Below, piece by piece: positions 1,671 to 59,625 of a DNA stretch of 64,000 nt. The stretch is from positions 8,232 through 72,231 of the forward strand of contig JAPLVK010000013.1 of the NCBI GenBank assembly GCA_026397175.1, in the 5' to 3' direction. How positions within the stretch are numbered: the stretch's first letter is position 1; every line of letters begins with the position of its first letter. Source of the stretch: Candidatus Berkelbacteria bacterium (GTDB lineage Bacteria > Patescibacteriota > UBA1384 > DTJR01). The position numbers and the translations under genes were made by a program. Below the pieces are notes generated by a model. The model saw nothing but the letters and a program-made list of their open reading frames with translations. It had not been told where the DNA came from and did no database searches.

Positions 1671-2490
1671 AAAACAATTTTCCTTCCAGATGAGGTTCTT
1701 TTTTGTCGGACTCGAGCTTTGTTTCTAGATCTTTTTTGTCTATTTCTATTTTTTGCGATTGAAACCGATACTTGCAATAATCACAGTTCTCATTACGATC
1801 GGGGATCAAATCACTTTTTAGACATTTATGCGCTTCGATTAATTTTGGCTCAATCCATTTATCGTCTCCATTATAGGGAATCAGTTCAATATCAAACTCA
1901 AGTTTTGCATCAAAGGCCTTCCTATCTTTCAGAGCGTTGCAGTAAACAAAATATCCGGTTTTGGAGACATTAAAACCGTTTTGCCTAAACAACCATTGAT
2001 AAATTTCAAGCTGGCGTTTGTAGCTCGCCTTCCATTGATCTTCCATATCTATTTTGCCTTCCTTGCTGGTGGCCTTGTAATCAACCACAATGAATTCGTC
2101 TTTGTCGTTGATCCAGAGGTCGTCAATACCACCATAAAATTCTATATTGGTCGGCTTGTGCAAAAATTTAATACCCTTAAAAACCTCGCGCCATTCATTC
2201 AATTTTTCGTGGGTTACGGGTCGCGCGTTGACGGAATATTTAGCAAGTAGGGGATGGGTCTCGCCTTTGGCTCGATGGATATCAAACTCCTTTTTTAAAA
2301 GTGTGTCAACGGCAGAATTTAAGGTAAAAGATGGTGTCGGGGGCGGCGCGATTCCGAGCCGTTTATCTAAATAAAAGCATCTTGGGCATCTGACAAATAA
2401 TTCAAGTCCAGATCTGCTCATTCTGTATGGCTCTTTTGATTTTGGGTCAAAATTGTATTTTGCCGGCTTTGGCGGGTTATAATATCCCAT
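1669..2490 (-). CDS. PD-(D/E)xK nuclease, Cas4/RecB-like with Fe-S cysteines, standalone with no CRISPR locus
   Basis: N-terminal RCPRCFY; IDDL...VVDYK (D...D/ExK); QLEIY (QxxxY motif); C-terminal C-x(n)-CDYC cysteine cluster. Confidence 0.65.
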   Translation of the reverse strand: MGYYNPPKPAKYNFDPKSKEPYRMSRSGLELFVRCPRCFYLDKRLGIAPPPTPSFTLNSAVDTLLKKEFDIHRAKGETHPLLAKYSVNARPVTHEKLNEWREVFKGIKFLHKPTNIEFYGGIDDLWINDKDEFIVVDYKATSKEGKIDMEDQWKASYKRQLEIYQWLFRQNGFNVSKTGYFVYCNALKDRKAFDAKLEFDIELIPYNGDDKWIEPKLIEAHKCLKSDLIPDRNENCDYCKYRFQSQKIEIDKKDLETKLESDKKEPHLEGKLF

Positions 2491-2612
2491 TTTTTTTAAT
2501 AATTATTTGTTTCTACGATAATAGGTTATATCTTTTTTTTAGTTTGAGCAAATTCAAAAGAAAGATGTAAATATTGAATTTTTTTAAATTTTCGGTTAAT
2601 ATAAACCTGTTT

Positions 2613-2686
2613 TCCCGGGTCGTCTAGTGGCAGGACAGCTGGTTTTGGTCCAGCTAACCGGGGTTCGAATCCCTGCCCGGGAACCA
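2613..2686 (+). tRNA. tRNA-Gln (anticodon TTG), CCA encoded
   Basis: cloverleaf folded by hand: acceptor TCCCGGG/CCCGGGA, anticodon stem GCTGG/CCAGC, loop TTTTGGT, T-stem CGGGG/CCCTG with GTTCGAAT loop. Confidence 0.85.
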
Positions 2687-2807
2687 AACCATATGTATCC
2701 ACGAAGTGGATAGTTATGGTTTGGTGGAGAGAAGGGATTTGAAAGGCGCAGGCCCGACGGGGCCGAGCCGGGGTCGCGAAATCCGCCAGCAGGCGGATAT
2801 TTGTGAC

Positions 2808-2828
2808 CGAATCCCTGCCCGGGAACCA
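2808..2828 (+). repeat. 21-nt direct repeat of the tRNA-Gln 3' end (cgaatccctgcccgggaacca); att-like scar
   Basis: exact duplicate of 2666-2686, located 142 bp downstream. Confidence 0.6.
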
Positions 2829-2929
2829 TTCGACTCACCTCGTTCGCTCATGGTCTTTGACCGTTCAATGGATTCACAGTAAACCATGAAGCTAAAGGAT
2901 ATGTTTTTAAAAAATAGGATAATAAAAAT

Positions 2930-3370
2930 ATGCAAATATCAAGTCCGGCGTTTAAGGATGGGGAAGAACTCCCCGAGAAATATACTTGTCGCGGAGAAGG
3001 AATTAATCCGCCTCTTATTATCTCTGATGTTCCAAGTAACGCTGTCGAGCTAGTTTTAATTTTGGATGATCCGGATGCCCCTTCAGGCAATTTTAATCAT
3101 TGGGTTGTAATAAACATAGATCTCAAAGTTAACAATATCTTAGAAAACTCCTTGCCAAAAGGCGCAGTAGAAGGTTTAAACAGCGCATCAAAATCGGGAT
3201 ATGTCGCTCCTTGTCCGCCTTCCGGAATTCATCATTATTGCTTTTCTCTTTATGCGCTAGACAGCAAATTAAATCTTTCGTCTCCCGCAAATCGAGATAG
3301 TGTTCTAAAATCAATGGAGTCCCACATAATTTTACGAGCTAATTTAGTTGGGCTTTGTAAGGCCAAGTAA
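2930..3370 (+). CDS. YbhB/YbcL-family PEBP (Raf kinase inhibitor-like) protein
   Basis: DPDAPSG...HW and CPPSGIHHY signatures of the bacterial PEBP family. Confidence 0.8.
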   Translation: MQISSPAFKDGEELPEKYTCRGEGINPPLIISDVPSNAVELVLILDDPDAPSGNFNHWVVINIDLKVNNILENSLPKGAVEGLNSASKSGYVAPCPPSGIHHYCFSLYALDSKLNLSSPANRDSVLKSMESHIILRANLVGLCKAK

Positions 3371-3446
3371 CTTAAACTTGTGTGTTCGGATTGATTTATT
3401 CGGAATTTTATGTTAATTTTAACTATCAAATTATTTAAATTATAAA

Positions 3447-4508
3447 ATGCAAAGTCCACCTGTTGTCGCAATTATTGGACGGCCGAATGTCGGCAAATCA
3501 ACGCTGTTTAATCGTCTCGTCGGAAAACGAGAGGCGATTGTTGCCTATGAAGCAGGAACAACCAGAGATAGGGTTATGGCGGAAGTCGAGTGGAACAATA
3601 AAAAGTTTATTTTATTTGATACCGCCGGGCTAATTTTGGATTTTTTTGGGTTTGATGAGGCCGAAATAGAAAAGAAAGCTCAAGAAAAAATCAACGATGT
3701 ACTTTCCGATTCAGACATTATTCTTTTGGTTTTGGATCAGCAAAGCGGTGTAACGGCTGAAGATGAGGAAATTGCAAAAAAGATTCGAAAATTAAACAAA
3801 AGAGTAATCGTAGTTTTTAATAAATCCGATAGCTTGTCACACGAAGAAAGTTCATCTTTACAAAATACATTGGGATTTAAGGAATCAATGGCTGTTTCGG
3901 CGATTAGCGGGCGCAGAACCGGCCAGCTTCTGGATTATTTAACTAATGACTTTATTGAGCCAGAAAAACCATCGACAAAAAGTCCCAAAATATCAATAAT
4001 CGGAAGACCAAATGTCGGCAAGTCAACACTGTTTAATGTACTGGCGGGATCTGATGTTGCTATCGTTAGCGACACATCCGGAACCACACGAGATCTCGTT
4101 AAAGTTAAAACAGATATTTTAAAATCAAACGACGATGTGCCGATTGAATTAATAGACACGGCCGGATTTCGCAAAAGAGGCAAGATAAAACCCGGAATCG
4201 AAAAATTTTCTGTGATTAGATCTGTTGAAGCGATTTATAAATCAGATCTATCATTATTGGTTGTTGATGCAGCAGAAGGGTTTTCGAGGCCTGACGCGCA
4301 TTTGGCACAACTCGCACTGGACAAAAAAACAAAGATAATAATTGTTTTAAATAAAATTGATTTGTTAAAAAATCAAACAAAAGATGAGATTAAAAACCTG
4401 AATAAGTTTTATTTTTTGACTAAACTTACGATGGTTGCCGTATCTGCAAAAAACAAACTAAATATCGAGCTGTTAATTTCAGAAATTATACGAACCCTTA
4501 AAGATTAA
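3447..4508 (+). CDS. der: ribosome-biogenesis GTPase Der/EngA with two G domains and no C-terminal KH domain
   Basis: two GRPNVGKSTLFN P-loops, two DTAG motifs, NKxD; 353 aa ends right after GD2. Confidence 0.85.
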   Translation: MQSPPVVAIIGRPNVGKSTLFNRLVGKREAIVAYEAGTTRDRVMAEVEWNNKKFILFDTAGLILDFFGFDEAEIEKKAQEKINDVLSDSDIILLVLDQQSGVTAEDEEIAKKIRKLNKRVIVVFNKSDSLSHEESSSLQNTLGFKESMAVSAISGRRTGQLLDYLTNDFIEPEKPSTKSPKISIIGRPNVGKSTLFNVLAGSDVAIVSDTSGTTRDLVKVKTDILKSNDDVPIELIDTAGFRKRGKIKPGIEKFSVIRSVEAIYKSDLSLLVVDAAEGFSRPDAHLAQLALDKKTKIIIVLNKIDLLKNQTKDEIKNLNKFYFLTKLTMVAVSAKNKLNIELLISEIIRTLKD

Positions 4509-6120: not shown

Positions 6121-6195
6121 TGGTGGTCGCTACTGGATTTGAACCAGTGACATTACGGATGTGAACCGTACGCTCTACCGCTGAGCTAAGCGACC
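6121..6195 (-). tRNA. tRNA-Val (anticodon CAC), CCA encoded
   Basis: reverse complement GGTCGCTTAGCTCAGCGGTAGAGCG...TTCACAT loop...GGTTCAAATCC...AGCGACCACCA folds as a cloverleaf. Confidence 0.85.
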
Positions 6196-9032: not shown

Positions 9033-9476
9033 CTATTCTTTTTCTTGATCTGCCTCATCCTCTGACTTTTCTTCACCCTGCTGCTTATCGTCATTTTCAC
9101 CATCGTTTTCTTTTTCTGGCAAAAACTCCTCGTTTTCACCCTGTCTATCCGGCATTTGGCATTTGCCAATGAATACCGATCCGGAATGGATTAGAAGATC
9201 CTTGGTCTCGACATTTCCCTTGATAGTTCCGCTTGAATTTAGCTCAATCTTTTCTCCGGCAGTGATTGTGCCGTTAACATAACCCGAAACAATAACTTCT
9301 TTGGCATGTATCGGCCCTTTGACGCGCGCCGACTCCTCAATAATTATTTTTTCATCAGATGATATTTCGCCATCAACACCGCCAAAAACAGTAATATCAC
9401 TGGTGTCTTTAATGGCTCCGGTGAGGTGAACGGATGACCCTACGATTGTGCCAACTTGCTGGCCTGGCTGTTTCAT
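9033..9476 (-). CDS. bactofilin-family cytoskeletal protein with an acidic tail
   Basis: beta-helical repeats (GTIKGNVE, GEKIELNSSG) and an acidic C-terminal tail. Confidence 0.65.
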   Translation of the reverse strand: MKQPGQQVGTIVGSSVHLTGAIKDTSDITVFGGVDGEISSDEKIIIEESARVKGPIHAKEVIVSGYVNGTITAGEKIELNSSGTIKGNVETKDLLIHSGSVFIGKCQMPDRQGENEEFLPEKENDGENDDKQQGEEKSEDEADQEKE

Positions 9477-9581
9477 ATTACTCCTTATTATTTTTATTAA
9501 TTTCTCTTTTGATTGAACTTTAGCACAATAAAAGCCAAAATCAAGAAACTTAACTCAAAAATGGCCGACCAAACAAAGCTA

Positions 9582-9610
9582 TTGATTTGTTATTCTTTTT
9601 GTATTATAAT
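9582..9610 (+). promoter_or_regulatory. sigma70-like promoter for uvrA (TTGATT, 17 nt spacer, TATAAT)
   Basis: -35 at 9582-9587, -10 at 9605-9610, 24 nt before the ATG. Confidence 0.5.
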
Positions 9611-9634
9611 GCCTGCAGCTAATCGAATAATTTT

Positions 9635-12406
9635 ATGAAAAATATAAAAATTACCGGTGCCAGAACACACAACCTTAAAAATATTTCTCTTGAAATTCCA
9701 AAAGAAAAAATTTCGGTCATAAGCGGAATTTCCGGCTCGGGAAAATCTTCTTTGGCGTTTGACACAATTTTTGCCGAAGGCCAAAGACGATATGTCGAAA
9801 ATTTATCTTCGTACGCAAAACAAATTATCGGCGTTATCGAAAAACCGGATGTGGATTCGATAGAAGGCATACCACCGGCTATTTCGATTGACCAAAAAAG
9901 TATTGCTCGCTCACCTCGCTCTACTGTCGGGACACTGACTGAAGGATATGATTATTTACGACTGATATATTCAAGGTTTGGGGAGGTTAGATGTCCATCT
10001 TGCCGAAAAGTAATTTCGGGCGGCTCAAGCAAAAAGGTAGTGGAGGACTCATTGGAATTTATTGAGTCCGTTGATTCAAAAGATAAAAATGTAAGAATTT
10101 TTGCTCCAATGATAAGTGGACTAAAAGGCCAGCATCAATTGGTTTTGGATAAACTCTCAAAGTCCAATTTTAAAGCAATTCGGATTGATTCAAACATTTA
10201 TAAACCATTTGAGATTAAGAACCTGAAACTAGAACAATCCGACCCCCACTCGATAGGGGTCTGGACTTTGGATAAGGACTTTACAAAGATGTCAGTGGAA
10301 AACATAAAGTTAATCGAAAAAGCGATCCTGTTAGCCCTTGATCTGTCTTCGGACACAGTGAAAATTTGTGTGAACAATGAAGAGAAGGCATTTTCTAGCC
10401 ACCCCGGTTGTTTAAAATGTCAAATCAGTTTTCCGCCAATTCAGCCAAGATTGTTTTCATTTAATAGTCCTTATGGCGCATGTACTAAATGCCAAGGGCT
10501 TGGAGTAATTAAAAAAGTCATTCCGAATCTTGTAATCCCAAATGCTCGGCTAACCTTATCCGAAGGAGCAATTAGGCCATGGGCTCGGCTGGCCGGACAA
10601 AACAGCTGGCTCACAAAAACCCTAAATTCATTAGCGCAAAGGAATAATTTTTCTCTAGACACGCCTGTTATGAATTTGGGTGAAAAGGCGTTAAGAGCGA
10701 TTTTGTATGGTGATGCTGAATTTGAAGGAGTGATTAAAAACTTAGAAAAAAAATACAAGGAAACGGACTCCGAATATCTAAGAGGCGAGATAGAGCAGTA
10801 CATGGTCGAGAAAATGTGCGAAAAATGCGAAGGAAAGCGCTTAAACGAATTTGCGCTTTCCGTAACATTTCTGAATAAAAAAATATATGAGCTTTCCGAT
10901 ATGGAAGCCCAAAAGTTAGTGGACTTTATTGAAAAAAATAAGGATAATCTTCCAAACGAATCAAATCAGGCCGTAAACGAGCTTTTAAAACGACTTAAGA
11001 ACTTAATCTCGGTAGGTTTAAGTTATCTTGCTCTGTCCAGAAGTAGCGAAACGCTCTCCGGCGGAGAAGCGCAAAGAATTCGCCTCGGTGTTCAGTTTGA
11101 CTCGTTTTTAAGTGGTGTTTTATATGTTTTGGATGAACCGACAATCGGTCTTCATAATCTTGATACCGAAAAAATGATACATGCCTTTAAAAAATTAAGA
11201 GATGAAGGAAACACGGTAATAATTGTCGAGCACGATAAAACTATCTTGGAATCAGCTGACTATATTTTTGATATGGGTCCGGGCGCTGGAAAAGATGGCG
11301 GTTATCTTATAGCCCAAGGATCACCCGAGGAAATAAAGAAAAATTCAAAATCGGTTACCGGCCCATATTTATCCGGCGAAAAAAATATTCCATACCCTAA
11401 AAAAAGAAGAAAAAAATCGGACTCATTTTTAAAAATAAGCGGCGCACGACATAATAATCTCAAAAATATTGATGTTGAAATTCCGCTTGGACAATTTGTC
11501 GCCGTTTCCGGTGTCTCGGGTTCTGGAAAATCATCTTTAATTTATGATGTACTGGCCAAGGCGCTAGCGCAAAAGTTAAATCGTTCGGAAGAGGAGCCGG
11601 GTGAATTTAAGGAAATTCTTGGGTTTGAAAATTTAAATAAAGTAATTAAAATTGATCAAACCCCGATCGGTAGAACTCCAAGAAGTAATTTGGCAACTTA
11701 TACAGGGATATTTACTCCGATCAGAGAACTTTTTGCCGCAACCAAAGAGGCAAAAAATCATGCTTTTAACGCCAGCCAGTTTAGCTTTAACCTAAAAGGT
11801 GGAAGATGCGAAACATGTCGTGGTGATGGAGTTATTAAAATCGAAATGTATTTTATGCCCGATGTTTATGTTCCTTGTGAGGAATGCAACGGAGAACGGT
11901 ATAATCGTGAAACATTGGATGTTAAGTTTCAAGGAAAGTCGGTTTCGCAGGTTTTAAAAATGAGCGTTGATGAGGCCTCGGATTTTTTTAATGACTTTCC
12001 TGATGTGATGGAGAAAATCACGGTTTTGCAAAAAGTCGGTCTTGGATATTTGCCGCTTGGCCAAAGCGCGACAACGCTGTCAGGTGGAGAAGCGCAAAGA
12101 ATAAAATTGGCCGCAGAGCTCTCGAGACCGTCAACCGGAAAAACCATATATATTTTAGATGAGCCGACAACGGGGTTACACTTTGAAGATATTGGGAAGC
12201 TTTTGGAAATTTTGCAAGAACTTGTCGAAAGGGGAAATACTGTTTTAATAATTGAACACAATACCGATGTTATTAAAAACGCCGATTGGGTTATAGATAT
12301 GGGACCGGAAGGCGGCGAAAAAGGCGGCGAAATTATTGCCGAAGGGACTCCCGAACAAATTGCCAAAAAACCCAAATCAACCATCGGAAAATTCTTAAAA
12401 TTTTAA
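9635..12406 (+). CDS. uvrA: excinuclease ABC subunit A
   Basis: two ABC modules ([28 protein letters not shown] twice) plus zinc-finger cysteines. Confidence 0.97.
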
Positions 12407-12590: not shown

Positions 12591-12951
12591 GCCTAACTAT
12601 TTGAAGTAGCCACCCCCAACGGGGAGGAAAGTCCGGGCGCCGCAGAGTAGAGTACCCATGATAAATGGGCTGCCGTGAGGCAAGGGAATAGTACAACAGA
12701 AAATATACCGCTTGAGCCCTTCGGGGCGAAATCCTGAACGCAGTCGAAGGATTGTTTTCAGGTCGAGCAAGGTTGAAATCGTGCGGTAAGAGCGCACGCT
12801 TTCGGCGGGAAACCGCCGTCTGTGAAAACCCTATTTGGCGCAAGTTGAGTGGACCAATATCATCAATAATGATTACTCGTCAGATGACCGCGGTCTCAAC
12901 GCATAGATAGATGGCTACATAAACAGAACCCGGCTTATCGGATAGTTAGGC
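12591..12951 (+). ncRNA. rnpB: RNase P RNA, bacterial type A
   Basis: GGAGGAAAGTCCGGGC (P4 5' strand), ACAGAAAATATACCGC, GTGCGGTAAGAGCGCAC, ACAGAACCCGGCTTATCGG (P4 3' strand); P1 pairing gcctaactat/atagttaggc. Confidence 0.85.
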
Positions 12952-12962
12952 AAAATTAGTTC

Positions 12963-15128: not shown

Positions 15129-16016
15129 ATGGCAAAAACACTTAATGTTTTCAACAAAATAAGCTCACTTCGCAAAAGATATTATAAAGCGTCCACCGGT
15201 AAAGACGCGCTGGTTAAGCTTATCACTGAAGCCGAAGTGGCCGAGCAGGTCTATAACTCAAATGCGATCGAAAATAGCACTCTAACACTTGAAGAAACCG
15301 AAAAAATACTTATGCAGATCGATCTGGATAGATTTATCAATGAACGAGAAATATTTGAAGCAAAAAATCTGGCGCGAGTCGTATCGTACATCGGCAATAA
15401 GGCCAAAGAGCAAGAACTCAATCTCCCAATGATTTTGCTGCTTCATGAAATGTTGATTTCCAACATTCGCGACGATGTTGCAGGAAGGTTCAGAAAAGAT
15501 AACGAATTTGTTCGCGTTGGCAGTCATATTGCTCCTAACCCAAAAGAGGTGGTGGATCGTCTGTCAAAAATGCTGGCCGAATATAATGCCGCAAGTAACG
15601 AGAATATCATCAAGCGGATTGCAAAATTGCATCTTACTTTTGAATATACACATCCATTTGTCGACGGTAATGGTCGCATTGGCCGCGTTATTAATAATTA
15701 TTTATTGATTCGAGAAGGGTATGTGCCGATAAATATTAAATTTATTGATCGGAAAATGTATTACGAAGCTTTCAGAGAATTTGATTCTAAAGGCGAGACA
15801 GCGGTGATGGAAGAAATTGTCGGTAAAGCTTTGACGAATAGTTATCATAAAAGATTAGCGTATTTGGAAAACAAAAAGATTATTTCTCTTGTCGACCATG
15901 CGAAAAATAACAAAATTTCTCATTCCAATTTGATAAATAAGGCCAACCGTCAGACCATTGAGGCCTTTCTGGAAAAGAATATTTGGAAAATTGGCGTTAA
16001 AAATGATAAAGAATGA
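15129..16016 (+). CDS. fic: Fic-family AMPylator, class II (N-terminal inhibitory motif SNAIEN)
   Basis: HPFVDGNGRIGR Fic motif; [ST]xxxE[GN] inhibitory motif near the N-terminus. Confidence 0.85.
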   Translation: MAKTLNVFNKISSLRKRYYKASTGKDALVKLITEAEVAEQVYNSNAIENSTLTLEETEKILMQIDLDRFINEREIFEAKNLARVVSYIGNKAKEQELNLPMILLLHEMLISNIRDDVAGRFRKDNEFVRVGSHIAPNPKEVVDRLSKMLAEYNAASNENIIKRIAKLHLTFEYTHPFVDGNGRIGRVINNYLLIREGYVPINIKFIDRKMYYEAFREFDSKGETAVMEEIVGKALTNSYHKRLAYLENKKIISLVDHAKNNKISHSNLINKANRQTIEAFLEKNIWKIGVKNDKE

Positions 16017-16178
16017 AAACTTATAAACGAATCAAAAATAAGAGTGAAATATATTGACCCAAACTTAAATAAAAACCCCTTGCCTCCGATATCGAATCCG
16101 CCATCACATTTCAGGAAAAATTCTTCAAGCATAAATTAGTTACAAGACAATGTATGAACAATATTTAAGAAAAAATCA

Positions 16179-17039
16179 TTGCAAAAAATAGGTAATATGA
16201 AAAAGAAAATAATTATCACTCAAGGTTTACAAATATATACATTTCAACAGAACAAAAATGATTATATTTCGTTGACTGATATGGCGAAGTATAAGGATGC
16301 AGAAAGAACTGATTATATTATCCAAAACTGGATGAGAACAATGGATACGATTGAGTTTTTGGGTATTTGGGAGCAGATCAATAATCCTAATTTTAAACCC
16401 ATCGAATTCGATGGGTTTAAAGAAAAAGCTGGTTCTAACAGTTTCTCTCTCACTCCAAAGAGGTGGATCGAAGCGGTAAACGCCATTGGTATGATAAATA
16501 AAGCTGGTCGCTATGGGGGCGGTACTTTCGCCCATAAGGACATTGCATTTGAGTTTGCCACTTGGCTTTCGCCCGAATTCAAACTCTATTTGATTAAGGA
16601 ATTTCAGCGCCTTAAAATCGAGGAGAATGAACGTCTGACTTTAGGTTGGGATGTTAAGCGACAGCTCACCAAAATCAATTACCGCATTCATACCGATGCC
16701 ATTCAAAAAAATCTGATACCAAAAGAAATTTCTAAGACACAAACAAAAATTATTTATGCCTCGGAAGCAGATGTTTTAAATATGGCGTTGTTTGGTTTAA
16801 CTGCCAAGGATTGGAAAGCGAGTAATAAGAGCAAAGCAGGCAATATGCGCGATTATGCGGATGTTTGCCAGCTCGTCGTCTTGGCGAATTTGGAAGGATT
16901 AAATGCTGAATTTATCAGACAGAAATTAACACAACCAGAACGACTCTTAAAATTAAATGAAATTGCTATAATCCAGATGAGTTCTTTGCTGGGCAGCCCA
17001 GGTCTTCAGAAATTAAAGGACAAGAATGCCAATATTTAA
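16179..17039 (+). CDS. KilA-N domain protein (phage-associated)
   Basis: ISLTDMAK...GGGTFAHKDIAFEFATWLSPEFKLY resembles KilA-N. Confidence 0.6.
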   Translation: MQKIGNMKKKIIITQGLQIYTFQQNKNDYISLTDMAKYKDAERTDYIIQNWMRTMDTIEFLGIWEQINNPNFKPIEFDGFKEKAGSNSFSLTPKRWIEAVNAIGMINKAGRYGGGTFAHKDIAFEFATWLSPEFKLYLIKEFQRLKIEENERLTLGWDVKRQLTKINYRIHTDAIQKNLIPKEISKTQTKIIYASEADVLNMALFGLTAKDWKASNKSKAGNMRDYADVCQLVVLANLEGLNAEFIRQKLTQPERLLKLNEIAIIQMSSLLGSPGLQKLKDKNANI

Positions 17040-17245: not shown

Positions 17246-18763
17246 ATGGCAAAAAATACATCAGCAAATATAGGGTTTGAGGAAAAGCTTTGGGCGGCGG
17301 CAGATAAGATGCGCGGCAATATGGATCCAGCCGAATACAAGCATATTGTTTTAGGTCTTATTTTTTTGAAGTATATTTCGGACTCATTTGAATTGCTTCA
17401 CTCCAAAATTGAGAAAGAAGATGGGAGCGATGAAGCCGAGGACAAGGATTATTATACCGCCGAAAATACTTTCTGGGTGCCAAAAAAATCACGCTGGAAC
17501 TATATTCGTGATAATGCTCGCAAATCTGAAATTGGAAAAATCATTGACGACGCCATGTACGCGATCGAAAAAGAAAATCCTGACCTAAAGGGTGTTTTGC
17601 GCAAAGATTTTGCTCGACCGGCTCTCGACAAACAGCGGCTTGCGGGAGTTATTGATGTTATAAGCCAAGTTGACATGCAGGAAAATCAATCTCGCGATAT
17701 CATCGGCCGCATTTACGAGTATTTTCTTGGCAGATTTGCTGGTAGCGAAGGTAAGGGCGGGGGTGAATTTTATACTCCGCAATGTATAGTTAAACTGCTG
17801 GTAAATATGATTGAGCCATACAGCGGCCGTGTTTATGATCCGTGCTGTGGTAGCGGCGGCATGTTTGTTCAGGCAGAAATTTTCAACCAAAACAGCGAAG
17901 GCAGGAATGACGATTTAATCGTACTTGGTGAAGAGTCAAACCATACCACTTGGCAACTGTGCAAAATGAATCTCGCACTACATCATGTTGACAGTTCTAA
18001 AATAAAGTATGGAAATAGTTTTCACAGCGATCAACATCCAGACCTAAAAGCTGATTTTGTTCTGGCTAATCCGCCCTTCAACGATTCTGATTGGGATGGC
18101 CAGCTTTTGCGAAATGATGTTCGCTGGAAATATGGTGTGCCGCCAACTAGCAATGCAAACTATGCTTGGATGCAACATTTCATCCACCATTTATCGCCAA
18201 CCGGAATAGCCGGTTTCGTTATGGCGAACGGTGCAATGGCGGCGAACCAGTCCGGTGAGGGCGAAATCAGAAAGAATTTAATCAAGGCCGGCCTAGTTGA
18301 TTGTATGATAGCAATGCCAGACAAGCTTTTTTATAATGTACAAATTCCTTGCTCATTGTGGTTTCTGTCGCGCGATCGGTACGATCACAAATTCCGTAAC
18401 CGTCATGATGAAATTCTCTTTATCGATGCGCGAAAAATCGGCAAAATGGTTGACCGTCGACATCGCGAACTATCGGAAGAAGATATTAAAAAAATATCGG
18501 ATACATATCACAACTGGCGAAGTACAAGCGGTAAATATGAAGATATCAAAGGATTCTGCAAAGCCGCGAAAATAGAAGAGGTGGAGAAAAATGGTTTTGT
18601 CTTAACCCCCGGTCGCTATGTCGGCACCGAGCTCGTCGAGGAAGACGACGAAGTTTTTGAGGAAAAAATGAAGCGATTAACCACCGAACTTAACCAGCAG
18701 TTTGAGCAATCAAAAAGAATGGAAGAAAAAATTAGTGATATTTGGAATAAAATTGAATATTAA
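17246..18763 (+). CDS. hsdM: Type I restriction-modification methyltransferase subunit
   Basis: HsdM N-terminal domain; [10 protein letters not shown] (motif I); LANPPFN (motif IV). Confidence 0.95.
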
Positions 18764-19484
18764 CCAAGCAGAATTAAAACTCCTTAAACTTTTAAAAGAC
18801 ATTAATCATTTCTATGTAGACAAATGTCTTGATTCTGTTGAAACTTGCAAATTGTCGTGTTTGCACGACAAGGTACTATTTGTTCTTTTTCTTAAAAGCT
18901 ATCAAACTTCCACGGCTATGTCACAAATCAGTGAGTATGATGAAGAATTATTAATGCTTGCAAGAACAATATTTGAAAATTATATTAATGCGAAATATAT
19001 ATTGAAAAACGACTCTGAAAAAATGGCTAAGTTGTTTTTAAACTTTGGTAAGATGTCTTCAATTAACTTATTAATTAAAATGAGTCCAGCCAGTAGCTCA
19101 AAGAAATTACTTTTACGATTAAAAATGTTACAGTCAGAGAGGGTGGCAGAAACAAAGAGTTTTGAAATAACAAGTCAATATAATTGGTCTTGCAAAACGC
19201 TGAAGTATATGGCTGAGTCTGTCGGATGCCTCGACGAATATGACATTACCTATAATTTATGTAGTATGTCAATCCACTCATGCTCTGTTAATCTTAAAAG
19301 GTATATTTTGCCCGAGGTTGAAAAGAATGATCAACTTAAAATACTTTCAAAATTAATTTCGATTAATAATAACTTAATGATGTTAGAGTTAGTATCTGAG
19401 CATTTTAATCTTGGGTTAGAAAACGATATTAAAGATTTTGCTAATGTCAAAAAAAGTATTGTTGATACATTAAGCTTTAAATAA
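18702..19484 (+). CDS. unknown protein embedded between hsdM and hsdS (the start may be the ATG at about 18918)
   Basis: ORF in a different frame overlapping the hsdM 3' end; no recognisable motif. Confidence 0.45.
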
Positions 19485-19539
19485 TAGCATTAATAATAAA
19501 AAAAATCCAAGATACCAAGCTGGGGCTAATTAGAGAGGA

Positions 19540-20178
19540 TTGGATAACAATAAAATGAAAACAGCCATGGATTATATAGTCAATCATAAAGAATATTTTG
19601 TGATTATTGCCCAGCTAGCAATAGCTCCATTGGTTATTGGTGTTATTTCCGGTTATGTGGCAAACGCGCTGTCAGCAAAAATTGATAAGAAGAAGTGGGA
19701 ACACGCAGAAAATTATTTTAATAAACAAGTCGAAATTCTATTAATGAAAACGCTACTATCTTTAAGAATTTATTCTGGGCTCAAGCTCGATAACGAATTT
19801 GCGGAAGGGAAGAAGGTTTTAGATTTTATAAAAATAAATCTCATCGATAATATTGAAAATTATAAAAAGACAATAATGTTTCCGACCGCAAAAGCTGGTC
19901 AGATGTTCGCTAGCAATCTAGCAGGTTTGAAGCAAGAGTCAGAGTCTTTGCATAGACAATTGCTTAGTTTTCAAATTCCAAATGCTAAACTCCTTAAAAT
20001 AATTGAGGATCTAATACAAGAGATCGATTTAATCCTAATCCCTTTTCAAGTGTTCCCAGAAATTATTGATCCTCAATATGCTAGTGATAAAAATCTAGAA
20101 TTAGATAGAAGTAGTCTATTTGTTAATTATAAAAACCTAGCAATTATTAGCTATAAGTTTATAAATGATATTACATAA
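19540..20178 (+). CDS. unknown membrane-anchored protein (one N-terminal TM helix) embedded between hsdM and hsdS
   Basis: hydrophobic segment IIAQLAIAPLVIGVISGYVANAL; overlaps the hsdS start by 14 nt. Confidence 0.5.
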   Translation: MDNNKMKTAMDYIVNHKEYFVIIAQLAIAPLVIGVISGYVANALSAKIDKKKWEHAENYFNKQVEILLMKTLLSLRIYSGLKLDNEFAEGKKVLDFIKINLIDNIENYKKTIMFPTAKAGQMFASNLAGLKQESESLHRQLLSFQIPNAKLLKIIEDLIQEIDLILIPFQVFPEIIDPQYASDKNLELDRSSLFVNYKNLAIISYKFINDIT

Positions 20179-21358
20179 CGACACAAAATTTAAAGAAACT
20201 GAGCTGGGACTAATTCCGGAGGATTGGGAAATTGATATGCTCGGAAACCGAGCCGATGTTATCATGGGCCAATCTCCTGAATCAAAATATTACAACAAAA
20301 ACCAAGAGGGCCTGTACTTTATGCAAGGGGTAAGAACCTTTGGCGAAAAATATCCGATCTTTGACACTTGGACGACAAGCGCAACTAAAACCGCACCAGC
20401 AGAATCAGTTCTTATGAGCGTCAGAGCTCCGGTTGGTGATCTAAACATTACTCCAGTAGAAATGTGTCTTGGCCGAGGCCTTGCTGCCATAAATGCTAAA
20501 AATGGCAATAACGAATACATCTATCAGCTATTAGAAGCATATCGAGATAAAGTCCTTGGGCAAGAGACGGGAACAGTCTATGGTTCTATTTCTAGAGATG
20601 ACATTTTTAACCTAGAACTACCTTTTGCCCCAAAAGATGAACAGCAAAAAATTGCGGAGGTTTTGGGGACGTTGGATGAGAAGATTGAATTGAATCACAA
20701 AATGAATAAAACTCTGGAATCCCTCGCCCAGGCGATATTTAAAAAATGGTTTATCGAGAATGCTGATCCGGACTGGGAAACTAAGAAACTTAAAGACATT
20801 TGTGAAATTAAAAATGGCTTTGCATTTAAAAGTGGAGATTATTCAAAAGAAGGCATTTTTCTATTACGCACAAGCAATTTTAACTCTGAAGGATACGCGG
20901 TTAAAAATGACCCCATATTTTTACCGAATAATTTCTATCAAACATTCTCAAATTACCGTCTCAAAAGATTTGATATATTGCTTGTAATGGTTGGAGCGAG
21001 TGTTGGTAAGCGATCATTTGTATTTTCAAATATATTGCCAGCACTTCAGAATCAGAATATGTGGAATTTCCGTGCGTATGACCAAAAGAATCAGTTCTTC
21101 CTAAAATTTATGATTGATCAAATTGTCGAATCGAATATTGGATCGGCTTCTGGCAGTGCTCGAGATTTTTTTCGTAAGGATTATTTCAGAGAAATCGAAT
21201 TCAACTTACCCAACCAGAATCTTCTTGATAAATTTTATGAAAGATTATTACCCCAGTTCGAAATGATTGATAAAAATATAAAAGAAATCGACACTTTATC
21301 GCAAATCCGCGATTCCCTTTTGCCAAGATTAATGAGTGGAAAACTGAGGGTAACTTAA
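20165..21358 (+). CDS. hsdS: Type I R-M specificity subunit with two target-recognition domains
   Basis: conserved central and C-terminal HsdS repeats (LPFAPKDEQQKIAEVLGTLDEKIELN; LPRLMSGKL). Confidence 0.9.
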   Translation: MILHNDTKFKETELGLIPEDWEIDMLGNRADVIMGQSPESKYYNKNQEGLYFMQGVRTFGEKYPIFDTWTTSATKTAPAESVLMSVRAPVGDLNITPVEMCLGRGLAAINAKNGNNEYIYQLLEAYRDKVLGQETGTVYGSISRDDIFNLELPFAPKDEQQKIAEVLGTLDEKIELNHKMNKTLESLAQAIFKKWFIENADPDWETKKLKDICEIKNGFAFKSGDYSKEGIFLLRTSNFNSEGYAVKNDPIFLPNNFYQTFSNYRLKRFDILLVMVGASVGKRSFVFSNILPALQNQNMWNFRAYDQKNQFFLKFMIDQIVESNIGSASGSARDFFRKDYFREIEFNLPNQNLLDKFYERLLPQFEMIDKNIKEIDTLSQIRDSLLPRLMSGKLRVT

Positions 21359-21373
21359 TTAATAAGGAGAAGT

Positions 21374-22096
21374 ATGAGCAAAAAGAATGACTCATTTATT
21401 TCTAGACAAATCATAGAAGTCCGTTTTAAAAACAAAGTATTCAATTTTATTGATATCAGGGGAGAGTTTGCTGATTATGTTGTTAATAAATTGAAGTACG
21501 AAGAAATTGCAATTGCTGGAAATAGGGTTGACTTTACAACACTTGATAGAACTAAAAAAAGCTTTTTCAGCTGGGAAAACTTCGGGATTCAGCTTGACGG
21601 AGAAGGTAATTTCGACAACTTCAATAAGAGTATTAGTGAAAATATTGTAATGCTCAAAAATTATAAAAAAATTTCTCTTCCAGAAATAATTAGGATCGGT
21701 ACGCGGATTACTGGGTTGTATCACTTCCCAAATAAGTCAGTCGCCCAAATCAAGAAATCATTCGATGATGTATTCTTCTCTCATCAGGCACTATTTGAGG
21801 AGAAATCTGGAATATCAATTAAGGATAATGGGCTTTTTGCAATGGATATAGAAAAAGAAGGATTAAAGGCTCATGTTAGCGTCGGGATAATGACTAAAGA
21901 TGAATCGATCGCAAAAGTTTTTTCGGATAAACTCTATGATGCTTACAATTACGAATCAGGAATTTTTCATGATATCGACTTATATGACGAGGCTCCAACA
22001 GTTAAAAACTTTGATGACCTTCAGTCGAGAGTATCATCTCAAATTGAAAAACTGAGACAGTTACAATTAGATATTGTAAAAAAACTGGAGCAATAA
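21374..22096 (+). CDS. unknown protein (240 aa) embedded between hsdS and hsdR
   Basis: strong SD AAGGAG; no recognisable motif. Confidence 0.55.
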   Translation: MSKKNDSFISRQIIEVRFKNKVFNFIDIRGEFADYVVNKLKYEEIAIAGNRVDFTTLDRTKKSFFSWENFGIQLDGEGNFDNFNKSISENIVMLKNYKKISLPEIIRIGTRITGLYHFPNKSVAQIKKSFDDVFFSHQALFEEKSGISIKDNGLFAMDIEKEGLKAHVSVGIMTKDESIAKVFSDKLYDAYNYESGIFHDIDLYDEAPTVKNFDDLQSRVSSQIEKLRQLQLDIVKKLEQ

Positions 22097-22097
22097 G

Positions 22098-22619
22098 ATG
22101 GACGAGAACCAGGCAGATCACACCCAAGGCTCTGCTATACAACCGGACTTTATTTCTGTTAAAAATTCCGGGGAAGAGACAAGCCCAGGAACTGAGAAAA
22201 ATATTGATAAAGTTATTGAGGACAAGGGTCCCGGGGGTTTTGTAATTGGCTTAGTTGATTCATTTGAGAAAAAATTTCCTACTGCCTTCTTTATTCTCGT
22301 GGTTGTAGGATATATTATTATCGAATCATTTGGTTCTCATAATATAAGAATTTACCAATACTCGGCAGTAATCTTGGTGAGCTTGATATTCTATTGTTTT
22401 TTAAAGTATTCGAGCGAAATTTTTGGTTGGTTTAGGCGGATTGGGTTAGAAGCAAAAAATAATCAAATAGCTACATATCTGGTCTCGTTTCTTGTTGTTG
22501 CGGTATTATGTATAGTATATTACTATTTCGGAACTCCGAAGTTATACTTTGAAAAGCGTCATAAGATTATCAATTCCGCTTGTGTGCAAACACAGCAATT
22601 TATTAAGGGGACTGAATGA
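22098..22619 (+). CDS. unknown small membrane protein (3-4 TM helices) embedded between hsdS and hsdR
   Basis: starts 2 nt after the previous stop; ATGA overlap with hsdR. Confidence 0.5.
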
Positions 22620-25600
22620 AATATACAGAATCAACATTAGAAGAAGCGACGAAGGAATGGTTTGAGGAATTGGGATACCAAACTATTTATGGGCCGGAGA
22701 TTGAGTCGGAAGCCGAAAAAGCCGAGCGGAAGGACTTTTCGCAAGTGGTTTTGGAAGGACGGCTAAAAAGTGCAATTGAAAAGCTAAATCCAAACATTCC
22801 AGCGGATGCAGTCGAAGAAGCATTTAAGAAAGTGGTTAATGTTACAAATGCTACTTCGCTTTTGATTTCGAACAATCAGCTTTTTCATAAATATTTGGTA
22901 AATGGAATTGATGTTGAGTATCGCCGAGACGATGGCACGATTGCTGGGGATAAAGTCTGGCTTATAGATAAAGAGAATATTGATAATAATGATTGGGTTT
23001 GGCTGGATCAGTTTACGGTAAAAGAGAACGAGATCCTGAAACAAGTTCAGGATGACACAAGGGTCAGGCGGCCGGATGTGGTGATATTTGTGAACGGTTT
23101 GCCACTCGCTGTTTTTGAACTCAAGAATTTGGCTGATGAAAATGTGGGGATCAAAGAAGCGTTCAATCAGTTTCAAACTTATAAAAACGATATTCCCTCG
23201 CTTTTTGCATATAGCGAACTTCTGGTAATTTCCGACGGGGCGGAAGCCAAAGTCGGCTCCATAACCTCGGATAATGATCGGTTTATGCGCTGGCGAAGTG
23301 TTGACGGCGCAGAATTAGCAAGCGATGCCGTGCCACAATTAGAAACTTTAATTAAAGGAGTGTTTGATAAAAAGCGCTTTCTGGACATTGTTTGTAATTT
23401 TATTGTTTTTAATACATTTAAAACCCCACTTCGCCAAGGTTACGCGGGGCAGGCATCCGGCGTAGAAAATATTGCCAAGATAGTACCGGCTTATCACCAG
23501 TATTTTGCAACAAACAAAGCCCTAGAAAGCACTATTCAGGCAACTGCAGATGATGGCGATCAGCGCGCCGGTGTGGTTTGGCACACACAGGGAAGCGGAA
23601 AGAGTTTAACTATGGCATTCTATGCCGGCAAGCTGATCCAAGCTTTGAAAAATCCGACGGTTGTTGTTTTGACTGATAGGAACGATTTGGACGATCAGCT
23701 TTTTGATACTTTTAGCAAGTGTTCCGACCTATTAAAACAAACACCTGTTCAAGCCAAGAACCGACGACACCTACGAGAGCTTCTGAAAGTAGCCAGTGGC
23801 GGGGTGGTATTTACTACCATTCAAAAGTTTTTGGACAAGGGTTTTCTGGAGAAAATGTTGTTAACTGATCGAAGAAATGCTGTAGTGATTGCCGATGAAG
23901 CCCACCGCAGCCAATATGATTTTATTGATGGCTATGCCAGAAGCATGAGAGAATCATTACCAAATGCTTCGTTTATTGGCTTTACGGGTACACCGATCGA
24001 GTTGTCCGACAAAAACACAAAGGCGGTTTTTGGCGGTTATGTCGATGTCTATGATATTTCCCAAGCTGTGGCCGATAAAGCAACCGTGCCGATATTTTAT
24101 GAAGCCAGATTGGCAAAAATTAATTTACTGGAAAGTGAAAAACCAAAAATTGATGCTGATTTCAATGATATTACTGAGGGCGAAGAAGTCGAAATGGTTG
24201 AGAAGCTCAAGAATAAATGGGCGCGACTTGAGGCGATGGTCGGTAGCGAAAAACGAATTAAACAAATTGCGCAGGATATTGTCGAACATTTCGAAAACCG
24301 GCTAGATGTGATGGATGGCAAGGGGATGATAGTTTCGATGAGTCGAAGAATTGCTGTTGAACTTTATGATGAAATTATTAAGCTTAGGCCGGATTGGCAT
24401 AACGATTCTGATAAAAAAGGTTTTATTAAAGTAATTATGACCGGTTCGGCCAGTGATCCATTGCCTTATCAAAAACATATTCGCAATAAAGAGTCTTTGC
24501 GCGAGATGGCAGATCGGATGAAAGATCCGAGCGATGAGTTGAAATTGGTAATTGTTCGGGACATGTGGCTGACAGGTTTTGATGTGCCAAGCATGCACAC
24601 AATGTACATAGATAAGCCGATGAAGGGTCATGGACTGATGCAGGCGATTGCTAGAGTTAATCGAGTTTATAAAGAGAAGCCGGGCGGTTTGGTTGTTGAC
24701 TATTTAGGCATTGCTCCGCAACTCAAGGAGGCCTTGGCTGAATATTCCGAAAACGATCAGGAAAACACGGCAATAGATCAGGAGAAAGCCGTTTCTGTCA
24801 TGCTTGAGAAATTCGAAGTTTTGCGAGGAATATTTCACGAGTTTGATTACGAGAGATATTTTAAGATGAAGCGATCTGACAAGACGAAATTTTTCGGTGA
24901 TGCTATGGATTTTGTTTTATCAATAGAGCCGGATAATGAAGAATCTAAAAAACGGTTTAATAAGGCAGTGGTTGAGCTATCAAAAGCCTTTGCTCTGGCA
25001 GTGCCGCACGAAAAAGCATTAAAGATTAAGGATCATGTCGGGTTTTTCCAGGCGTTAAAAGCATATGTTCGAAAAATTTCGCCTGTTTCCGGGCCGACTG
25101 AAGAAGATTATGATTTAGCCATCAAGCAAATTGTTTCAGATTCGATCGCATCCGGCGAAATAATCGATGTATTTAAGGCGGCTGGACTCGGTAAGCCAAA
25201 TGTTGAAATTCTCTCCGATGAATTTTTGGAGGAAGTGCGAGGGCTGGGCAGAAAAAATGTTGCTTTGGAAATATTAAAGAAGCTGCTGAATGATGAGATC
25301 AGATCGATTATGCGCAAGAATATGGTAAAAGGAAAATCATTTGCCGAGATGTTGGAAGCGACTCTGATTAAATATCAAAACCGAACAATAGAAGCGGCAC
25401 AGGTGATTGCCGATCTAATTGAACTGGCTAAAGAATTGAGAGGCGAAGTTAAGCGAGGAAAAGAGACGGGGCTGTCTGACGATGAAATTGCGTTTTACGA
25501 TGCTTTGGCCGAAAATGAGAGCGCAAAACTTGAGATTGGTGATGAAACGCTAAAAAAGATCGCCAAAGAGCTGGTTGTGATGATGCGAGAGAACGCGACG

Positions 25601-25759
25601 ATTGATTGGACATTGCGCGACGCAATTAAAGCAAGAATGAGAATCTATATTAAGAAATTGTTGAAAAAGTACGATTATCCGCCAGACAAACAGGAAGGCG
25701 CAACTCAGCTGGTTTTGTTGCAAGCCGAAACGATTGGAAAAGATTGGGGAGAAAAGTAA
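22616..25759 (+). CDS. hsdR: Type I restriction enzyme R subunit
   Basis: Walker A GSGKS; DEAH box [10 protein letters not shown]; overall HsdR architecture. Confidence 0.95.
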
Positions 25760-25870: not shown

Positions 25871-26272
25871 ATGAACTATCAGAAATCATACACCAACTAC
25901 AAACGCCCGCCGCTTTCGCCGCCGCCATATTTGTTTGGAATTGTTTGGCCGATTCTGTATGTGCTGATTATCATTTCATACGGATTTGTTTTCTATCAGG
26001 CGATTAAGGGAAATATTTCAGGGTTGCTTACTATCCCATTCATCATTAATCTAATTGCCAACGGACTTTTTACTTATTTTCAATTTAAGCTCAAGAATAA
26101 TCTTCTGGCTGCAATTGATATTGTCATTGTTCTTGCCACAATAATCCTGACTATGATTTTGATCTGGCCGGATTATCATTGGGTTACATATCTACAAATT
26201 CCGTATTTGATCTGGGTAATATTTGCCACCTATCTGCAATTCGGAGTCACAATCTTAAATCGCGATAATTGA
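25871..26272 (+). CDS. TspO/MBR-like membrane protein, short form
   Basis: RPPLSPPPYLFGIVWPILY... matches the TspO layout; SD AGGGGGG. Confidence 0.5.
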   Translation: MNYQKSYTNYKRPPLSPPPYLFGIVWPILYVLIIISYGFVFYQAIKGNISGLLTIPFIINLIANGLFTYFQFKLKNNLLAAIDIVIVLATIILTMILIWPDYHWVTYLQIPYLIWVIFATYLQFGVTILNRDN

Positions 26273-59549: not shown

Positions 59550-59625
59550 TGGTGGACCCGACAAGATTCGAACTTGCGACCTCTTCCATGCCATGGAAGC
59601 GCTCTACCAGCTAAGCTACGGGCCC
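59550..59625 (-). tRNA. tRNA-Ala (anticodon GGC), with G3:U70 and CCA encoded
   Basis: reverse complement GGGCCCGTAGCTTAGCTGGTAGAGCG CTTCC ATGGCAT GGAAG ...GGTCGCAAGTTCGAATCTTGTCGGGTCCACCA. Confidence 0.8.

Follow-up and report, generated by a model that had tools for sequence, protein, structure and literature searches.

Introduction

Genes embedded in restriction-modification (RM) systems are frequently defence systems themselves, and the model case of a suicide defence that is nested in RM as a second line is PrrC (Payne et al., bioRxiv 10.1101/2024.01.29.577857). In the EcoprrI operon of E. coli (hsdM-hsdS-prrC-hsdR), PrrC is encoded by an accessory gene that lies between hsdS and hsdR and is co-expressed with them; it is one protein, an ABC-ATPase and anticodon nuclease that cleaves tRNA-Lys. 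Here, we describe a pair of adjacent open reading frames (ORFs), ORF-A and ORF-B, that occupies the same slot in a type I RM operon of a Candidatus Berkelbacteria metagenome-assembled genome (MAG), in which both proteins carry the annotation 'hypothetical'. The window, by which we mean the whole stretch of DNA that was analysed, consists of 64,000 nucleotides (nt) of contig JAPLVK010000013.1 (assembly GCA_026397175.1, positions 8,232 to 72,231 of the forward strand), and all positions below are numbered within it unless another locus is named. We find that A+B is a conserved and mobile module in which the two genes are obligately paired and which recurs embedded in RM operons. It is a new pair of protein families within a known arrangement, that of accessory defence cassettes in RM operons.

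A+B shares with PrrC and RloC its place in a type I operon, with hsdS on one side and hsdR on the other. It does not share their domains: no match to them was found in PADLOC, Pfam, or NCBIfam, and the AlphaFold2 fold is not that of a P-loop NTPase. PrrC is a single protein, whereas A+B is a two-protein module with a membrane partner and without a P-loop or nuclease domain. Furthermore, PrrC is hardly ever embedded outside type I systems, whereas A+B is also seen by itself and in the company of type III or type II systems.

TgvAB of Vibrio cholerae is a two-gene system in a type I RM cluster; both of its genes are required, and it is a complementary defence that acts independently of HsdR (PMC11411939). 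[quoted passage not shown] In the 'guilt-by-embedding' survey, seven embedded systems were validated and a further 145 were put forward (bioRxiv 10.1101/2024.01.29.577857). Its HEC/PDC candidates (Payne et al. 2024) resemble A+B in being cassettes without a characterised role that are nested within defence systems of several genes, type I RM among them, while type III RM and the genomes of uncultured candidate phyla lay outside its coverage. Other defence genes from Patescibacteria are LdgA and Dallas/DdgA (PMC12366544).

A works-like analogy is provided by RexA/RexB of phage lambda, whose adjacent genes encode a soluble protein of ~240-280 residues and a small polytopic membrane protein of ~145-175 residues. 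RexA is thought to sense a DNA or protein cue, and RexB to depolarise the membrane. RexB has four transmembrane segments, compared with three in ORF-B, and there is no homology of A to RexA or of B to RexB. Rex is also prophage-encoded, whereas A+B was not found in the viral contigs scanned.

Results

ORF-A (21374-22096, + strand; TAA at 22094-22096) encodes a soluble protein of 240 residues, and ORF-B (22098-22619, + strand; TGA at 22617-22619) a small membrane protein of 173 residues. A search of the window with hidden Markov models (HMMs) found one copy of each. The upstream flank is hsdS (20165-21358, + strand; 397 residues; TAA at 21356-21358), with two stretches matching Pfam Methylase_S (3.3e-27), and the downstream flank is hsdR (22616-25759, + strand; 1047 residues), with matches to Pfam HSDR_N, SWI2_SNF2, ResIII, and T1RH-like_C (up to 1e-120). 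The operon begins with hsdM (17246-18763, + strand; 505 residues; Pfam N6_Mtase, 1.8e-106, and HsdM_N). From the Pfam matches and the reading of the ORFs, hsdM, hsdS, and hsdR are all intact and co-oriented, so that the region from 17.2 to 25.8 kb is a type I RM operon with two interruptions, which we call cassettes 1 and 2; A+B is cassette 2. An earlier annotation of this DNA, the original prediction, had placed a soluble 240-residue protein and a membrane protein between hsdS and hsdR, and the sequence, hydropathy, and Pfam matches of the flanks agree with it.

The predicted details of the junctions are also borne out. A Shine-Dalgarno-like AAGGAG, read from the sequence at 21364-21369 (+ strand), lies 4 nt 5' of the ATG of ORF-A, in the 15 nt that separate it from hsdS. 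A single base lies between the stop codon of ORF-A and the ATG of ORF-B, and a GGAG within the 3' end of ORF-A (22086-22089, + strand) is 8 nt 5' of that ATG. The stop codon of ORF-B overlaps the start of hsdR (ATG at 22616-22618) as ATGA (22616-22619, + strand). Rfam and tRNA scans gave no RNA element within the A+B cassette.

An exhaustive HMMER search of 1.84 billion representative proteins found 86 full-length relatives of ORF-A, 45 of them with E <1e-10 and nearly all 225-255 residues long. By contrast, a word-indexed homologue search returned the query alone for A, while the A profile gave three proteins and B a single relative; the B relatives were gathered from the loci that encode A relatives. 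In all 18 loci in which the contig continues, namely the window and 17 others, the gene that comes directly after A, at a spacing of -14 to +10 nt, encodes a small B-like membrane protein of 135-175 residues with two or three transmembrane segments. Defined as A together with an adjacent small protein with two or three such segments and G-Y-(I/V) in the first of them, the A+B module comprises the window and these 17 loci. Neighbour-joining trees of A and B are congruent, with the same major clades, and the two genes co-evolve.

Between two loci that are 82% identical, L019 and L020, the nonsynonymous (dN) and synonymous (dS) divergences are 0.11 and >2 for A, and 0.10 and 0.92 for B. Both genes are thus under purifying selection, with dN/dS ~0.1 or less. 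The 86 relatives of A, the B homologues in 17 loci, and the dN/dS of ~0.1 show that ORF-A and ORF-B are real genes and not chance ORFs. The HsdR proteins of the window and its sister locus L001 are 68% identical, while A is 40% and B 34% identical; similarly, L009 and L011 share 65% identity in Mod and 63% in Res, compared with 37% in A and 30% in B. By these identities, A and B diverge much faster than the neighbouring restriction genes. In most of the 17 loci compared, the module is richer in AT than its surroundings (A in 15, B in 13), the extreme contrast being L028, with a GC content of 0.605 for the locus, 0.448 for A, and 0.424 for B. In the window, the four cassette genes have GC contents of 0.29-0.36, compared with 0.37 for hsdS and 0.42 for hsdM, hsdR, and rpoB. 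This AT-richness relative to the surroundings marks A+B as horizontally acquired. No relative was found in viral contigs in two scans, within the limits of those searches, and tblastn searches with A of plasmid and phage records, and with its relative P0057 of plasmids, gave no match.

The genomic contexts were tallied for the 17 loci with an informative neighbour, which were found by pattern- and identity-based look-ups and are not a census. In 7 of the 17, A+B is in the same slot, immediately 5' of the restriction gene. Two of these are type I operons with the order S-A-B-R (the window and L001), and five are type III operons with the order Mod-A-B-Res (L003/L004, L009, L011, L012, and L015, the contig of L015 ending after Mod-A-B). 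The type III hosts belong to two distinct Mod/Res lineages, which are only ~25-35% identical. Altogether, 11 of the 17 loci have restriction-related neighbours: the seven embedded ones, three beside type II RM or Vsr genes, and one beside an HNH nuclease. Among the three, L016 has an N6_N4 methyltransferase and an MvaI/BcnI endonuclease followed by A-B, L020 has an Eco57I/TaqI_C-type methyltransferase upstream of A-B, and L019 has a Vsr gene directly upstream (2.8e-17 to E. coli Vsr). In L023, the upstream gene is HNH-nuclease-like. The upstream neighbour in one further locus (L021) matched no identifiable gene.

The remaining five loci (the L005 group, L010, L018, L026/L027, and L028) have no RM gene. 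The pair is near a serine recombinase and an SNase gene in the L005 group (L005-L008, L013, and L014), follows HTH_XRE and ImmA/M78 peptidase genes in L010, lies 1.5 kb from a serine recombinase in L018, and forms RadC-A-B-PIN in L026/L027. L026 has the nearest relative of the window pair (A 44%, B 46% identical), which is not in an RM operon. These contexts, in L005, L018, L010, and L026, are typical of mobile or defence regions. L028 has a distant pair (2250-3463 of that locus) in the order ruvX-A-B-recO, among the housekeeping genes adk, map, and aspS, and is a clear case of foreign insertion into a row of housekeeping genes. That contig has 60.5% GC and its pair 42-45% GC, so the module also occurs outside low-GC genomes. 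The comparison of the locus across other genomes that had been proposed originally thus finds A+B in type I, II, and III RM contexts of other uncultured bacteria. Homologues confined to non-defence contexts, or annotation of the proteins as known enzymes or transporters, had been named as grounds for abandoning the defence interpretation; in fact, the homologues are mainly in restriction and defence contexts, and no such enzyme or transporter family is matched.

Two observations on the other loci may be added. In L009, a PDDEXK_1 nuclease gene (9222-9905 of that locus; 227 residues) overlaps the end of res, giving Mod-A-B-Res-PDDEXK. The MAG labels 'Nevskiaceae' and 'uncultured Gammaproteobacteria' for L005/L006/L013 and L011 look doubtful, because the contigs have 37-38% GC and the primary-sigma-like protein of L005, at 362 residues, is far shorter than gammaproteobacterial RpoD. 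These may be mis-binned contigs of epibionts.

The junction between B and the restriction gene is conserved. In all six distinct embedded loci that reach the restriction gene (the window, L001, L003/L004, L009, L011, and L012), the stop codon of B is -4 to +1 nt from the start of R or Res, and in four of the six, the junction is ATGA. This conservation argues for co-transcription of R with B and makes their translational coupling probable. The original prediction went further and held that hsdR can be made only by translation through A and B. The word 'only' is too strong, because hsdR has its own Shine-Dalgarno-like AAGGGG (22605-22610, + strand) within the 3' end of ORF-B, 5 nt 5' of its ATG, so that independent initiation of hsdR on the polycistronic mRNA is possible. 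A scan for consensus promoters, in which sites were about as numerous as in shuffled sequence, gave none on the + strand within ORF-B, upstream of hsdR. Within its 3' end, ORF-B also has a terminator-like hairpin (22525-22542) with a 7-bp stem and a weak T tail, ~75 nt 5' of the hsdR start, which is possibly an attenuator. Between 15 and 27 kb, there are 19 terminator-like sites, compared with 9.7 +/- 3.1 in shuffled sequences.

ORF-A has no hydrophobic segment by hydropathy. In the alignment of 45 sequences, E15, G30, R107, G109, and D202 are invariant, and D27, F64, G71, D151, and G196 nearly so; a closer subgroup additionally conserves R17, R51, E68, N69, Q73, K175, and E177. ORF-A gave no match at E <= 1 to the NCBIfam family TIGR04255, of which it is thus not a member. 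The relative P0057 scored 18.9 bits against TIGR04255.1, below the curated cut-off of 30 bits. However, TIGR04255 was matched by 4 of 45 close and 4 of 35 distant members of the A family, the best E being 4e-08 for one distant relative. Because these few relatives match, we place the A family as a remote branch of the uncharacterised TIGR04255 superfamily, by a link that is transitive and does not amount to membership. The A protein is of similar length to TIGR04255 and has in common with it two conserved strands, E-x-R close to the N-terminus and R-x-G-x-(R/K) halfway along the protein. This family is sporadically distributed and of unknown function, a literature search on it found nothing, and it brings no functional information on A.

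The single-sequence AlphaFold2 model of A was unusable, with a predicted local distance difference test (pLDDT) score of 38, and was replaced by a model from the 45-sequence alignment, with a pLDDT of 94.9 and a predicted template-modelling score of 0.89. This model is a two-repeat alpha/beta structure, in which a curved antiparallel sheet has helices behind it. The first half is beta-alpha-beta4-alpha, and the second is beta-alpha-alpha-beta2-alpha-beta, followed by a long C-terminal helix (residues 213-239). No internal duplication was detected by hhalign (E 0.16). In the fold comparison, the highest scores were for McsB protein-arginine kinase (9.1) and for arginine kinase and taurocyamine kinase (8.9), followed by TBP (7.5), SerRS (7.0), AdoMetDC (6.8), and glutamate-cysteine ligase (6.6). 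The possible resemblance to the catalytic domain of McsB and arginine kinase and to the TBP-like fold comes with only 9-11% identity, Foldseek template-modelling scores of ~0.3, and no sequence match. The low-scoring Foldseek matches in PDB and BFVD were TBP, RepDE, AdoMetDC, and one unnamed viral protein (0.53-0.61). In the model, the fold class is clear, but the specific function does not follow from it. The conserved charged residues on the strands are compatible with a face that binds nucleotide or another ligand, or nucleic acid. Hence, the search for remote homology and structure suggested in the original prediction gave 86 relatives and a confident model of A but no match that reveals its function.

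ORF-B has three hydrophobic segments by hydropathy, TM1 (~residues 59-81; 22272-22340), TM2 (~90-109; 22365-22424), and TM3 (~121-147; 22458-22538), all on the + strand; of the three or four transmembrane segments predicted originally, three are present and the fourth is not. Three segments are also found in 13 of 17 B homologues, which are 135-175 residues long, and the HMM of the B family matches ORF-B of the window at 6e-43. From the alignments and charge counts, residues 1-58 (22098-22271, + strand) form an acidic hydrophilic N-terminus, which is followed by an amphipathic stretch, TM1, a short loop, TM2, a loop rich in K and R, and TM3. The N-terminal region has a conserved M(D/E)...T-x-G motif and averages 10.6 D/E compared with 5.5 K/R. 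TM1 contains the conserved motif G-Y-(I/V)...FG, and G71 and F78 are kept in >=90% of the sequences in alignment A6. From the richness of the second loop in K and R, the N-terminus is probably cytoplasmic. The small three-segment layout of B resembles that of class I holins, but the ~58-residue acidic N-terminal region has no counterpart in holins, and no member of the B family matches the holin families of Pfam.

Neither ORF-A nor ORF-B has a significant match in Pfam, NCBIfam, PHROGs, or PADLOC, and no known enzyme, transporter, or toxin-antitoxin family in these databases is matched by either. In PADLOC-DB v2.0.0, which includes the HEC/PDC models, both are without a match at E <= 1. At the level of the families, PADLOC v2.0.0 gave scattered single weak matches among the 45 A members and none among the 15 B members, and the B family has no match in Pfam, PADLOC, or PDB. 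Sequence searches of PDB with A, with the A1 and A3 profiles, and with the B profile found nothing.

Cassette 1 consists of a gene for a DUF5677 protein (18702-19484; Pfam DUF5677, 1.4e-18) and a second gene (19540-20178) for a protein of 212 residues with a single N-terminal transmembrane segment. BLASTP and HMM searches gave no relatedness of these proteins to A or B, and we therefore reject kinship of the two cassettes. That their sequences are unrelated had been expected; the architecture supposed to be common to both is a superficial likeness, since the membrane protein of cassette 1 has only the one N-terminal segment. In L001, the slot between hsdM and hsdS (218-1531 of that locus) contains two unrelated genes for proteins of 256 and 160 residues without a Pfam match, while the slot between hsdS and hsdR retains A+B. 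Therefore, the two slots change independently of each other. Near serine recombinases, DUF5677 was recently singled out as a candidate for defence (bioRxiv 10.1101/2025.10.07.681051). Between the stop codon of the DUF5677 gene and the gene for the 212-residue protein is a stretch of 43 nt (19501-19543) with 77% identity to the 5' end of hsdS (20185-20227). Translated in the frame of hsdS, the stretch gives KIQDTKLGLIREDWITIK*, and its hsdS counterpart reads ..KFKETELGLIPEDWE. It looks like a leftover hsdS N-terminus, from insertion of the gene for the 212-residue protein or from replacement of hsdS.

Immediately upstream of hsdM, on the same strand, are genes for a Fic/DOC protein (Pfam, 4e-22) and a KilA-N protein (4e-20) at 15129-17039. 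Because these directly precede hsdM, the region from 15.1 to 25.8 kb looks like a small defence island adjoining rpoB/rpoC. Immediately 3' of hsdR, also on the same strand, is an ORF for a very hydrophobic protein of 133 residues (25871-26272). Elsewhere in the window are ordinary housekeeping features: a class A RNase P RNA (12593-12953; 180 bits), tRNA-Gln (2613-2686), tRNA-Val (6121-6195), and tRNA-Ala (59550-59625).

Discussion

What is the function of A+B? We suggest, with a probability of about 0.5, that it is an autonomous, mobile two-gene module that provides an extra antiviral defence of the abortive-infection type, embedded here in a type I RM operon. In the mechanism that we infer, the cytosolic A protein, with its two-repeat alpha/beta sheet and conserved charged residues, would detect a sign of infection, which could be nucleic acid or a phage protein. 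It would then act on the three-helix B protein, probably through the conserved acidic cytoplasmic N-terminal tail of B, and the activated B would permeabilise or depolarise the membrane. With its location immediately 5' of the restriction gene, A+B would be transcribed and inherited together with the RM system and probably coupled to it in translation.

This antiviral reading has precedents in PrrC, TgvAB (PMC11411939), and the 'guilt-by-embedding' survey (bioRxiv 10.1101/2024.01.29.577857). It is favoured because A+B is a real family with obligate pairing, linkage to RM across three RM types, and mobile or defence neighbours, and because its AT-richness signals horizontal acquisition and its sequences diverge fast under purifying selection. 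The support comes from context and not from function, and several points weigh against it. Neither protein is homologous to any validated defence protein, and PADLOC v2.0.0, with its PDC models, has no consistent match for the 45 A or 15 B members. The fold of A indicates no particular sensing activity, and B by itself would fit a killing effector but also a toxin, an anchor, or part of a transporter. The sample is small, with 17 informative loci that do not come from a census, and the distant L028 pair lies among housekeeping genes, between ruvX and recO. Furthermore, the compact genomes of uncultured bacteria put many unrelated genes in one transcription unit.

One alternative is a role outside defence, in which a glutamine-synthetase- or guanidino-kinase-like enzyme or ligand binder works with a small membrane partner in transport, the envelope, or signalling, and the RM location reflects packing of a small genome. 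The L028 pair, amid adk, map, ruvX, recO, and aspS, fits this explanation, but the link to restriction genes is repeated in independent lineages and in several RM types, the GC anomalies point to horizontal acquisition, A and B diverge faster than the neighbouring genes, and no transporter or enzyme family is matched; we consider it the least probable of the alternatives. A selfish role, like that of a toxin-antitoxin pair, is a serious rival and the likeliest of them, although still improbable. B would be a small membrane toxin and A its neutraliser, and the pair would stabilise itself and the RM island and would have no specific antiviral task. Type I RM operons are known to harbour toxin-antitoxin pairs, the layout of B is small and holin-like, and a mobile, AT-rich unit with overlapping genes in many unrelated contexts, even a housekeeping operon, is what one would expect. 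However, at 240 residues and with a large conserved charged surface, A would be an unusually big and elaborate antitoxin, the strong preference for restriction-related neighbours (11/17 loci) is unexpected for a generic pair, and there is no match to a toxin-antitoxin family.

Could A+B instead serve the RM system itself? The window cassette is in the prrC slot, and nearly all PrrC genes are found inside type I RM (Payne et al., bioRxiv 10.1101/2024.01.29.577857). By analogy, A might be held inactive by binding to the methyltransferase/specificity or restriction subunits of the RM enzyme and, when a phage anti-restriction protein disables RM, would release or activate B and kill the cell. The seven loci with A+B directly 5' of the restriction gene, six of them with junctions of -4 to +1 nt, are in keeping with such a guard. 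Yet it is unlikely that a single sensor would contact three unrelated RM types, with two divergent type III lineages among them; in at least five loci, no RM gene is nearby, which argues against obligate dependence; and L026, the closest relative of the window pair, is outside an RM operon. Alternatively, A+B may be an accessory that fixes the restriction enzyme to the membrane where DNA enters the cell, or that delays or limits R so that methylation comes first. The pair in the embedded loci is always immediately 5' of, and tightly coupled to, the R or Res gene, and in the window 1.25 kb of coupled translation separates hsdS from hsdR. But a type III operon has only one internal junction, so that a position upstream of Res is little informative, the pair is also found 3' of a type II endonuclease (L016) and without any RM, and most RM systems function without such genes. 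Because A+B stands beside three unrelated RM types and alone, a strict guard and an RM-regulatory role are both less likely than autonomous defence; we hold the guard to be quite doubtful and the accessory role slightly more so.

A more specific form of the defence proposal is that A+B represents a new class of restriction-coupled suicide immunity, in which A would be a divergent enzyme or sensor with a guanidino-kinase/TBP-like fold, from the TIGR04255 superfamily. It would watch for incoming DNA or for the condition of the adjacent restriction enzyme, be it of type I, II, or III, and trigger the holin-like, three-helix B. We regard this as unlikely, ranking it between the toxin-antitoxin-like role and the guard. 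If true, A+B would be a membrane-acting counterpart of PrrC that is widespread in candidate-phyla bacteria, and a first function would be obtained for the large, unannotated TIGR04255 family.

To our knowledge, very few defence systems have been described from candidate-phyla (Patescibacteria) bacteria, whose immune repertoire is almost unknown. A+B comes from such bacteria, spans type I, II, and III systems, and is a compact, transferable candidate with a clear signature of type I and III embedding and type II adjacency. Because its coupling to the restriction gene is conserved, backup-defence wiring in RM operons could be tested on it. If validated, the pair would constitute a new family of sensor plus membrane effector, would extend 'guilt-by-embedding' to type III RM, and would open the uncharacterised TIGR04255 superfamily to functional study.

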